A DNA stretch of 64,000 bases, taken from Alistipes sp. Its GTDB lineage: Bacteria; Bacteroidota; Bacteroidia; Bacteroidales; Rikenellaceae. The translations under genes were made by a program, and so were the position numbers. The notes under the pieces were generated by a model. It did no database searches. It was given only the letters and a program-made list of their open reading frames with translations, and was not told the DNA's origin. The stretch lies in contig JBGVMU010000003.1 of NCBI GenBank assembly GCA_045124955.1, forward strand, positions 85,247-149,246, given 5' to 3'. The stretch's first letter is position 1. The number at the start of each line of letters is the position of its first letter. Below, piece after piece: positions 27,184-63,895 of the stretch.

Positions 27184-27444
27184 TTACTTCTTCTTATCGT
27201 AGCGCTTTGCGTAACGGCTCATAAACTTATCCACACGACCGGCGGTATCTACCAACTTCATCTTACCAGTGTAGAATGGGTGAGATGTGTTAGAGATTTC
27301 CATCTTATACACGGGATAGGTTTCGCCGTTCACCTCGATGGTCTCCTTTGTCGAAACGGCGGACCTGCACAAAAACACGTGGTCATTCGACATATCCTTG
27401 AATGCCACCAAACGATAATTCTCTGGATGAATTCCCTTTTTCAT
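27184..27444 (-). CDS. rpmE2: 50S ribosomal protein L31 type B
   Basis: MKKGIHPENY, EISNTSHPFYTGK, GRVDKF; no zinc-binding cysteine pairs. Confidence 0.97.
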   Translation of the reverse strand: MKKGIHPENYRLVAFKDMSNDHVFLCRSAVSTKETIEVNGETYPVYKMEISNTSHPFYTGKMKLVDTAGRVDKFMSRYAKRYDKKK

Positions 27445-27493
27445 CTTGAATGTGTTTTTTGTTAATTAAGTACTTAATTGCAATAATGCGGTG

Positions 27494-27541
27494 CAAAGGT
27501 AGAATAAAAAATTCAGAATGCAAAATGCAAAATGCAAAATT
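27494..27541 (-). promoter_or_regulatory. rpmE2 promoter with a (CAAAATG)x4 heptamer array across the -33 region
   Basis: TACCTTTG on the minus strand at 27494-27501; a TTTG from the array at 27521-27524 gives 19-nt spacing. Confidence 0.7.
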
Positions 27542-27584
27542 TTCTACTTTTCCACCTTTTCATCCGAAAATTGGGGGGATTTCT

Positions 27585-27770
27585 CATAGGAGATGCACCT
27601 GCGATGCTTGATAAGAGGCGGAGCAGAGCTCCTTTATGGGAGATACCGACAAGTCGGCTTGATAGGAATTGTGTCCTGGCTTATCTTGTCAAGTAGTCGC
27701 AAGACTACGCCTCCTATCAAGCAATTCTTTGAATTGCACCTCCTATCAAGGGCGCAGCACGACTCTTATA
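27585..27770. repeat. Array of CNYCTCCT-ATCAAG units each followed by a different mini-hairpin; two halves in inverted orientation
   Basis: Three units on each strand; related units at 63730-63804. Confidence 0.85.
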
Positions 27771-27826
27771 TGCTAAACAAATAGCGGCTTGGATTTCCCA
27801 AGCCGCTGTTGTTTAGTTACTCTTTT

Positions 27827-54970: not shown

Positions 54971-55270
54971 AGTGAGTAGAGAGTAGAGAGTAGTGAGTAG
55001 TGAGAACGGAAAACGGAAAGCGGAAAGCGGAAAACCCTCAGCGCCCCCTTAATAGCCCTTAATAGCCTTTAACAGCCTTTAATTCGTTGCGCCGTGATAA
55101 GGGTAGGAGTCTGCACAACCCCAAAAACCCTCAGCGCCCCCTTAATAGCCCTTAATAGCCCTTAATAGCCTTTAACAGCCCTTAATTCGTTGCGCCGTGA
55201 TAAGGGTAGGAGTCCGCACAACCCCAAAAGCCTTTCAGCGCACCCTATTACCCCTATAATTCGTTGCGCC
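54971..55270 (+). repeat. Fused heptamer array (9 units) followed by three tandem scaffold copies with 10-mer/9-mer cargo
   Basis: 54971-55033; scaffolds at 55031-55122 (3 x TAAYAGCCYT), 55123-55225 (4 units) and 55226-55270 (one 9-mer). Confidence 0.9.
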
Positions 55271-55297
55271 TTTCCCACCATCAGAGTTCCGAAAACC

Positions 55298-63635: not shown

Positions 63636-63895
63636 CAAAGATAATAAAATGAGCGGAAAACGGAAAACGGAAAGCGGAAAACTTTTAATTTAGAGAGTAG
63701 TGAGTAGTTAAAAACTTTCAGCGCTCCCTATCAAGCAGTTGCAAACTGCGCCTCTTATCAAGGGCGTAGCCCGCCTCCTATCAAGCACCGTAGGTGCGCC
63801 TCCTATAATCGTTGCGCCGAGATAAGGGTAGGAGTTCGCAAGCCGCAAAAAAAAGGAGAGTCGATCTCTCAACTCTCCACTCTAAACTCTCAACT
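63636..63895. repeat. murB promoter followed by a composite repeat homologous to 54736-55270
   Basis: TATCTTTG on the minus strand at 63636-63643; (RCGGAAA)x4 at 63653-63682; AGWGAGT units; scaffold at 63710-63840 with three ATCAAG-hairpin units; (CTCTCMA) array at 63866-63895. Confidence 0.88.

Follow-up and report, generated by a model that had tools for sequence, protein, structure and literature searches.

The serS-rpmE locus

In a 64,000-nt stretch of Alistipes sp. DNA (the window; C3:85247-149246 of G000, a metagenome-assembled genome that comprises 2.10 Mb in 31 contigs at 48% G+C and is 97% complete), the spacer between serS and rpmE holds an array of short repeats and mini-hairpins that is the subject of this report. 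Both genes are on the minus strand, and the array, at 27.6 kb, lies past the terminator-like hairpin of serS and upstream of the rpmE promoter with its TAccTTTG box. Here (27584-27772) and at a second place in the window (63717-63840), short hairpins take turns with a constant segment, (C)GCCTCCTATCAAG. The 27.6-kb array is a dyad of two different arms with three hairpins each, and it carries no GC clamps (Table 1). The same arms enclose, elsewhere in the genome, a gene for a predicted four-helix-bundle protein, and the overall explanation favoured here, with moderate confidence, is that the dyad is a gene-less variant of a four-helix-bundle cassette with modular hairpin arrays.

A first, sequence-only reading of this DNA had described a constant 14-nt repeat alternating with hairpins. 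The alternation is borne out. In every module the last G of ...CAAG opens the hairpin and a C closes it, so that the true single-stranded unit is about 11 nt, (G)CCTCCTATCAA. The eight hairpins listed in that reading were all found in the sequence; three of them, CCGAC-TT-GTCGG, GAGC-TCT-GCTC and CATC-GCA-GGTG, are minus-strand readings, the left half of the 27.6-kb locus being in inverted orientation, and CATC/GGTG includes one T.G pair.

The dyad is predicted to fold as RNA at -72 to -74 kcal/mol (z = -4.5 to -6.4) and as DNA at -34 kcal/mol (z = -3.4 to -4.2). In the predicted fold the arms pair over a long range through their units, and most of the local hairpins are kept.

Hairpin modules

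A census of CTCCTATCAA-type arrays collected from several Alistipes genomes yielded 92 inter-unit spacers. A perfect stem of at least 4 bp is present in 65 of them, and in 60 of these 65 the stem begins at the first base past ...CAA; the 27 spacers without such a stem include chance unit pairs, mostly inside genes. Modules are 9-17 nt long with stems of 4-7 bp. They fall into about eight recurring types (GCAGTY, GGGC, GCACC, GCCGAC, GGAGC, GCAATTC, GTAGTC and AGGC), the order of which is fixed within each element family. The proposal that the spacers vary freely is thus not upheld, while the companion proposal, that self-complementarity is kept as the sequence changes, is: pairing persists through two-sided changes in five hairpin types (CAGTT/AACTG to CAGTC/GACTG; GCCGAC/GTCGGC to GCCAAC/GTTGGC; GTAGTC/GACTAC to GTAGCC/GGCTAC and to ATAGTC/GACTAT; GGGC/GCCC to AGGC/GCCT; and GCAATTC to GCAATC on both arms). 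A folding-strand test on curated single mismatches (G.T versus A.C) gave 8 versus 4, which is not significant. A genome-wide census of hairpins with one mismatch was swamped by chance hairpins in genes and was discarded except for its loop counts.

Enrichment of GNA loops, which had also been proposed, was confirmed for one strand. On the strand where the unit reads CCTCC..., GNA accounts for 27 of 50 triloops (about 6% expected) and its complement TNC for 2 of 50, P-values being inflated because the array copies are related. The GCAATTC and GGAGC types regularly carry pyrimidine-rich loops (TCT, TTT, CCC) instead. DNA minihairpins of the form d(GCGNAGC) were reportedly described by Hirao and colleagues, and GGGC-GTA-GCCC, GCACC-GTA-GGTGC and the GCGTAGC and GCGCAGC of the C2 paralog (see below) are exactly such C-GNA-G triloops. 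The d(GCGNAGC) hairpin is however a structural motif and not a genetic element, and the Alistipes arrays also have, in two types, the equally regular pyrimidine-rich loops.

A further recurrent module, GCGAsCAaCGrGAGCG, stands between units in the hairpin's place at three positions of G000 (C2:73836, C17:40816 and C5:95934). Its stem is only 3 bp, and it looks like a conserved non-hairpin module.

Four-helix-bundle cassettes in this genome

A 182-aa gene at C24:40364-40912 is enclosed by both arms of the 27.6-kb dyad, the order of their hairpin types being the same there. The upstream arm of this cassette is inverted and holds the GGGC, GCAATC and GTAGCC types; the downstream arm is forward and holds GCCGA, GAGC and GCACC, plus two further modules. 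A TAccTTTG promoter of the gene's own lies within the arms. Its product matches TIGR04258 at 61 bits, TIGR02436 at 28 bits (above the cut-off) and PF05635 at 27.6 bits (below the gathering score), with a weak match to PDB 2GSC. By these profile matches it is a predicted four-helix-bundle protein, S23p/Avd-like, with a TIGR04258 suffix domain.

Five four-helix-bundle genes are found in G000, all of them between inverted arrays and each with a different unit. Hairpin-bearing CTCCTATCAA units flank the C24 gene. A paralog of 70% identity lies between large CCCCAGTAAAG and CCCCGTTAA arrays with hairpins, including the bare GCGTAGC and GCGCAGC of the C2 paralog arms, and a paralog of 54% identity lies between hairpin-less CCCTTAATA and CCTTTAACA units. 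Two canonical TIGR02436 genes are bracketed by (CGGAAAR)n ... (YTTTCCG)n and by (AGCCATT)n ... (AATGGCT)n, respectively. Thus the genes of this kind are bracketed by unit/hairpin arrays and by heptamer arrays alike. Inverted flanks were scored by aligning locally the 350 nt upstream of a gene with the downstream 350 nt, taken as reverse complement. Scores of the five genes are 12-28.5, against a median of 9 and a 95th percentile of 12 in a null of 1464 genes; when the null is restricted to the 214 genes whose spacers reach at least 120 nt on either side, the corresponding tail fractions are 0.17, 0.11, 0.056, 0.028 and 0.009.

The flagged 27.6-kb locus has only its 23-nt centre, with no PF05635/TIGR02436 gene between the arms. 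Since the arms match those of the C24 cassette but hold no gene, the flagged copy is a gene-less relative and not a full member. It is thus the empty form of a cassette built like an intervening sequence of 23S rRNA that bears an open reading frame (ORF).

Distribution across genomes

The exact linker YCTCCTATCAAG occurs 18 times in G000 against 0 for the reversed control, and in a comparison of 301 genomes from the genus, G000 (18) and G020 (RGIG9004; 8) alone stand out in exact-linker counts. In the window the strict unit YCTCYTATCAAG is found five times (0.96 expected); a looser 11-mer, allowing two mismatches, is not enriched there (28 versus 28.7 expected). About 13 intergenic loci in G000 carry the CCTCCTATCAA-type unit, and the same arrays are present in Alistipes sp. 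RGIG9004 (water deer) and RGIG5438 (sheep). The flagged locus belongs, as a non-coding copy, to a modular family of repeats found in ruminant-gut Alistipes.

The units of the arrays are about 11 nt, C-rich, G-poor and end in AA (CCTCCTATCAA at the flagged locus). Identical hairpin modules also stand between units CCCCAGTAA(A/G), CCCCGTTAA, CCCCATAAA and ATGCCATTAA in G000 and, in other species, between CGCCATAGAA and AATGTCATTT units, every one of which is likewise C-rich and G-poor with AA at its end. Hairpin types thus recur between different unit sequences, so that across families the linker is the variable part. Hairpin-less arrays of the same kind of unit exist as well, for example of CCCTTAATAG and CCTCTAACAAC; altogether, six families with units of 9-11 nt account for 114 array loci in G000. 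Rfam 15 gave no match at the gathering score, the best hits being at chance level (E = 0.19 and 0.77).

Orthologs of the C24 gene, at 79-86% identity, are found in G254, G060, G005, G153, G174 and G001. Each of these six genomes has two or three exact linker matches, and in 6/6 the ortholog has CTCCTATCAA-type arrays on both sides. No ortholog of at least 79% identity was found in 12 linker-free genomes examined, and five other genomes with two linker matches have no homolog. In five of the six ortholog species both flanks of the locus match, which implies that the cassette is resident and not a recent arrival. Among suffix-type genes with full flanks in other Alistipes, 14 of 20 score above the 95th and 7 of 20 above the 99th percentile of the all-gene null for inverted flanks, and the flanking unit differs from one such gene to the next.

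Across the order, TIGR04258 genes were found in 7 of 61 genomes sampled, one per genus, in or beside short-unit arrays of which several are inverted and none has hairpins. In two of these other genera (G027 and G320) the flanking unit is dispersed, at about 35 loci each by our own count of the listed places, with 96 versus 0 and 128 versus 3 matches relative to reversed controls; gene-less inverted pairs are among these loci.

In an Odoribacteraceae metagenome-assembled genome (MAG), nine tandem 21-nt repeats, TCTCYTATCAAGAGAAAGGTT, lie at a contig start (L013:54-240). The repeat combines a CTCYTATCAA unit with a GAGAAA-GG-TTTCTC hairpin, in another family of the order, and may be related. Four further candidates, an archaeal 13-mer tandem (L008) and loci from Ignavibacteria (L012), Arsenophonus (L015) and a cyanobacterium (L011), were rejected as plain tandem repeats or chance matches.

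The clamped scaffold at 63.7 kb

The second locus of the window is a single forward arm upstream of murB, in a gap between terminator and promoter like that of the 27.6-kb locus. It belongs with 43 elements that share the form YTYAGCGC-cargo-YTGCGCC-tail, in which the cargo consists of three to five units. The same clamps enclose hairpin-less cargo at 55037..55292, which shows that the clamped scaffold accepts interchangeable cargo; the 63.7-kb copy, of family A, is this scaffold loaded with hairpin-bearing cargo.

The BOX elements of Streptococcus pneumoniae have the structure boxA-(boxB)n-boxC. In the 63.7-kb copy, though not in the dyad, tandem middle units in variable number likewise lie between fixed end modules; the copy is also intergenic and non-coding, and the likeness is one of architecture only. 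It differs in that its cargo is interchangeable among unit families and has hairpin modules between the units. The 63.7-kb copy is thus a BOX-like scaffold whose cargo is exchanged between species. Several types of repeat thus share parts, units and hairpin modules being common to such clamped elements and to the hairpin arrays.

Table 1. Repeat features of the window, in window coordinates, and genes bracketed by inverted heptamer arrays elsewhere in G000.
Feature	Position	Strand	Remarks
Heptamer array (TGCAAAA)x3	27519..27540	+	within the ~290-nt block absent from closest relative G001
Two-armed ('dyad') gene-less array, family B	27584..27772	.	left arm inverted, right arm forward
Hairpin GCATC-GCA-GGTGC	27595..27607	-	CACC type, one T.G pair; outermost module of arm Y
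Unit GCCTCTTATCAA = TTGATAAGAGGC on + strand	27608..27619	-	
Hairpin GGAGC-TCT-GCTCC	27620..27632	-	arm Y
Degenerate unit TATCTCCCATAAA	27633..27645	-	
Hairpin GCCGAC-TT-GTCGGT	27645..27658	-	G.T at foot; innermost module of arm Y
Unit ATTCCTATCAA	27659..27669	-	
Dyad centre, 23 nt	27670..27692	.	full cassette C24:40.2-41.05 kb has four-helix-bundle gene and promoter here
Hairpin GTAGTC-GCAA-GACTAC	27693..27708	+	innermost module of arm X
Unit GCCTCCTATCAA	27709..27720	+	
Hairpin GCAATTC-TTT-GAATTGC	27721..27737	+	arm X
Unit ACCTCCTATCAA	27738..27749	+	
Decayed GGGC-type hairpin GGGC-GCA-GCAC, then degenerate terminal unit GACTCTTATATG	27750..27772	+	
Terminator-like hairpin directly 3' of serS stop codon	27775..27815	-	also inside the block absent from G001
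Three tandem elements with the same clamps, hairpin-less cargo of CCCTTAATAG and CCCTATTAC units	55037..55292	+	
Heptamer arrays (CGGAAAR)n and (AGTGAGT)n	63654..63709	+	between murB promoter and family A element
Family A element: clamp TTCAGCGC, three unit-plus-hairpin modules, clamp TTGCGCC, tail GAGATAAGGGTAGGAGTTCGCA	63717..63840	+	
Hairpin GCAGTT-GCA-AACTGC	63735..63749	+	
Hairpin GGGC-GTA-GCCC	63762..63772	+	holds d(GCGTAGC) minihairpin core
Hairpin GCACC-GTA-GGTGC	63785..63797	+	
Ordinary genes bracketed by inverted heptamer arrays	C5:202429-203058, C5:77320-78093, C18:5984-7126, C2:85874-86986 (G000)		

Turnover

Turnover of the arrays is fast, with gain, loss and swaps of cargo between close relatives. 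The rpmE gene and its upstream region as far as the TAccTTTG box (window 27184-27510 versus L038) are 100% identical between G000 and G001, and G001 is without the whole ~290-nt block that comprises heptamers, dyad and serS terminator. This filled/empty pair shows no target-site duplication: the block has been replaced. Miniature inverted-repeat transposable elements are marked by terminal inverted repeats and a target-site duplication at a clean insertion; inverted ends do exist in L001 (TGTAGGAGGC/GGCTCCTACA), and in the G000/G001 pair the block is replaced without a duplication. The serS genes of the two genomes, next to the fully identical rpmE, are only 93.6% identical, a drop that points to a breakpoint of recent recombination within the spacer.

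The murB spacer has changed as well. In G001 the family A element is kept, but with other heptamers and another tail; in G020 the scaffold holds a different cargo, CCCCAGTAAG units with GGGCG-GAA-CGCCC; in G060 the site is empty. In the G020 spacer (L124), about seven GGAGATA heptamers adjoin the clamped element, and the cargo mixes CCCCAGTAAG and CCCCTATTAAG units, the GGGCG-GAA-CGCCC hairpin and a non-hairpin module, CGAACGGAGTGAGCG.

Heptamer arrays are themselves numerous in G000 (AGCCATT about 100 loci, CGGAAAR 85, GAGAGTT 84, ATTGACA 78, AGTGAGT 50, GACGARA 33) and lie nearly all outside called genes. For AGTGAGT (37/49) and GAGAGTT (49/71), the gene that ends at the array usually has the purine-rich strand as its sense strand. 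Ordinary genes, among them a pyrE-like gene and genes for a secreted protein and a response-regulator-like protein, lie between inverted arrays of the same heptamer, for example (ATTGACA)n ... (TGTCAAT)n.

Points against the favoured explanation

Several observations weigh against the dyad being a gene-less variant of a four-helix-bundle cassette with arrays tied to such proteins. Array loci in G000 number in the hundreds, as against five four-helix-bundle genes, and inverted arrays bracket ordinary genes too, such as the pyrE-like gene; the association is therefore enriched, not exclusive or one-to-one. No four-helix-bundle gene in G000 is flanked by ATGYCATT, a family of 10 loci. In G020 (eight linker matches; 85% complete) CTCCTATCAA arrays are dispersed, yet its closest homolog of the C24 gene (74% identity) is flanked by GGGATAATA/CCCTATTAT. 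One orthologous hairpin in the murB spacer of G001 has two uncompensated changes, and the two-sided changes seen in other hairpins could stem from quasi-palindrome correction instead of selection. Finally, the 11-nt families show no orientation preference relative to the direction of neighbouring genes (7/9, 9/3, 20/19, 15/10 and 3/7 with tandem copies merged), which argues against a strand-specific role in host transcripts.

Alternative explanations

Some of these observations are also those expected of a neutral by-product, whereby arrays in untranscribed spacers arise and are homogenised through slippage, unequal recombination and quasi-palindrome correction, and neither hairpins nor units have a function. 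The hundreds of array loci with many unit types, the lack of an orientation preference, the quick gain, loss and cargo swaps among close relatives, and decayed copies such as GGGC-GCA-GCAC in the window and GCATC-GTA-GGTAC in G001 are all consistent with such an origin. It is nevertheless unlikely, because the same hairpin types occur exactly at unit junctions with fixed loop orientation across species and unit families, and because several genera show array enrichment around one protein family.

The architecture of the arrays, in which variable stems are separated by conserved single-stranded motifs, is like that of sponge RNAs, and the arrays could be imagined as a structured non-coding RNA, either a small RNA or protein sponge of the CsrB-like kind, with single-stranded CCUCCUAUCAA motifs between the hairpins, or a stabiliser in a 3' untranslated region (UTR). 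The forward arm of the cassettes begins 0-10 nt past the stop codon and is thus probably part of the 3' UTR, and the folding z-scores are strongly negative. This explanation is improbable: no Bacteroidetes-type promoter is found ahead of the dispersed copies, both loci of the window lie between a terminator and the next promoter, and there is neither an orientation preference nor an Rfam match.

A still less probable role is that of Rho-loading arrays akin to Rho utilization (rut) sites, in which C-rich, G-poor units with an 11-nt period would load the Rho hexamer while the hairpins loop out in the manner of boxB, which lies between rutA and rutB in lambda tR1; the dyads would stop transcription that leaves in either direction. 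The units are almost free of G, an array has three to six of them, the downstream arm of the cassette is C-rich on the sense strand, and for the 43 clamped elements the upstream gene runs along the C-rich strand in 29 cases and opposite to it in 11. However, orientation is random when all 11-nt families are considered with tandem copies merged (7/9, 20/19, 15/10), and most copies lie past an intrinsic terminator. With the initial bias of 29 versus 11 gone on that fuller count, the elements were rejected as Rho-loading or 3' UTR elements of host genes.

The sequence-only reading had favoured elements resembling repetitive extragenic palindromes (REPs) and bacterial interspersed mosaic elements (BIMEs), with single-stranded DNA (ssDNA) hairpins recognised and mobilised by a REP-associated tyrosine transposase (RAYT) or an HUH enzyme of IS200/IS605 type. 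In keeping with this, BIME/REP mosaics of enterobacteria and pseudomonads are likewise extragenic, combine hairpins with conserved linkers in either orientation and turn over quickly; one strand is enriched in d(GNA) triloops; a RAYT subclass specific to Bacteroidetes, with 'atypical secondary structures', has been published (PMC6006769); and one hairpin type starts with GTAG. REPs are, however, defined by a GTAG or CGTC tag at the foot of imperfect palindromes of 20-40 bp (PMC3733652), whereas the Alistipes stems are 4-7 bp within optional hairpins of 9-17 nt, GTAG is confined to the GTAGTC/GTAGCC type among about eight with no GTAG/CGTC rule, and the families are defined by their units, not by the hairpins. 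Moreover, a PF01797 (Y1_Tnp) profile search at E<=0.001 found none in the 97%-complete G000, the same search having hits in 6 of 14 control genomes. Without a Y1/RAYT gene, a GTAG/CGTC tag or an Rfam match, REP/HUH recognition is not supported and is very improbable. The suggestion that a structure-recognising enzyme built the array is not supported either, there being no Y1_Tnp gene and the hairpins being a small shared repertoire, not acquired spacers.

Two further candidates can be dismissed briefly. CRISPR arrays combine repeats 23-50 nt long with unique spacers and are accompanied by cas genes or a leader; here the constant part is 11-14 nt and the 'spacers' are palindromes of 9-17 nt that recur at other loci. 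An array of iterons or other binding sites in double-stranded DNA was rejected because the unit spacing varies between 23 and 30 bp and so gives no helical phasing.

Comparison with known systems

A close likeness of the cassettes is to the 23S rRNA intervening sequences of Coxiella burnetii and Leptospira, in which a PF05635/TIGR02436 gene lies inside a stem of inverted short-repeat flanks. As in the Alistipes cassettes, gene-less forms exist and no mobility enzyme is known, and the dyad itself has, in its predicted fold, the trait of pairable inverted arms made of short tandem units. The Coxiella intervening sequence holds an S23p ORF and tandem heptamers and is excised by RNase III (PMC4990558). 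The Alistipes elements differ in their place, which is in ordinary intergenic spacers (serS-rpmE, murB) and not in helix 25 or 45 of 23S rRNA; in their units, which are about 11 nt with mini-hairpins as opposed to heptamers; and in the cassette protein, which carries the TIGR04258 suffix domain and is encoded with a promoter inside the arms.

Intergenic heptamer arrays, GGGAATC, are known from Xanthomonas and Nostoc (PMC4692102). These too comprise hundreds of intergenic short-unit arrays per genome, with some inverted pairs, and Xanthomonas also has genes of the S23p four-helix-bundle family, the solved S23p structure being from X. campestris. Their heptamers differ in being G-rich, have been studied as quadruplexes and lack hairpin modules and clamps.

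A possible protein-repeat system

How a gene-less variant of the four-helix-bundle cassette might behave is suggested by the modelled fold. In a single-stranded dyad, whether as read-through RNA or as transient ssDNA, the arms would pair through their units into a branched hairpin about 190 nt long, from which the mini-hairpins would project as side arms. In a single arm, the effect of the hairpins would be to leave the units open, as single-stranded segments at even spacing. By analogy with the solved Xanthomonas S23p, a pentameric toroid (PMC4990558), exposed units of this kind would be a plausible platform for putative binding of an oligomeric four-helix-bundle protein. Copies probably spread and swap cargo through recombination between arrays, not by HUH transposition, and would be tolerated chiefly in the gap from a terminator to the next promoter.

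The PF05635/TIGR02436 family includes S23p of the rRNA intervening sequences and Avd of diversity-generating retroelements, and a resemblance of PF05635 to Avd has been noted (PMC10053308). A broader proposal, put forward tentatively and as something less than probable, is that S23p/Avd-like four-helix-bundle proteins and short-unit arrays form one protein-repeat system, in which each paralog would read its own unit. Alistipes would have added portable GNA-loop mini-hairpins, inserting precisely where units of any sequence join and so fixing which parts stay single-stranded, and dispersed gene-less dyads and clamped arrays would be trans-acting sites marking the boundaries of transcription units.

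These findings bear on the annotation of gut Bacteroidales MAGs, in which such arrays can be mistaken for CRISPR-like arrays. A figure legend of the FLSHclust CRISPR survey, concerned with CRISPR-linked genes, abbreviates '23S rRNA IVP' (PMC10910872); going by that legend, arrays flanking four-helix-bundle genes may have been called CRISPR-like in the survey.

More generally, a dispersed gene-less repeat is here tied to the arms that flank a PF05635/TIGR02436-type gene. Proteins of this family are widespread, and to our knowledge no function has been assigned to them outside diversity-generating retroelements. The arrays of three to six ~11-nt units, which the stable mini-hairpins between them would keep single-stranded, offer a candidate ligand for them.

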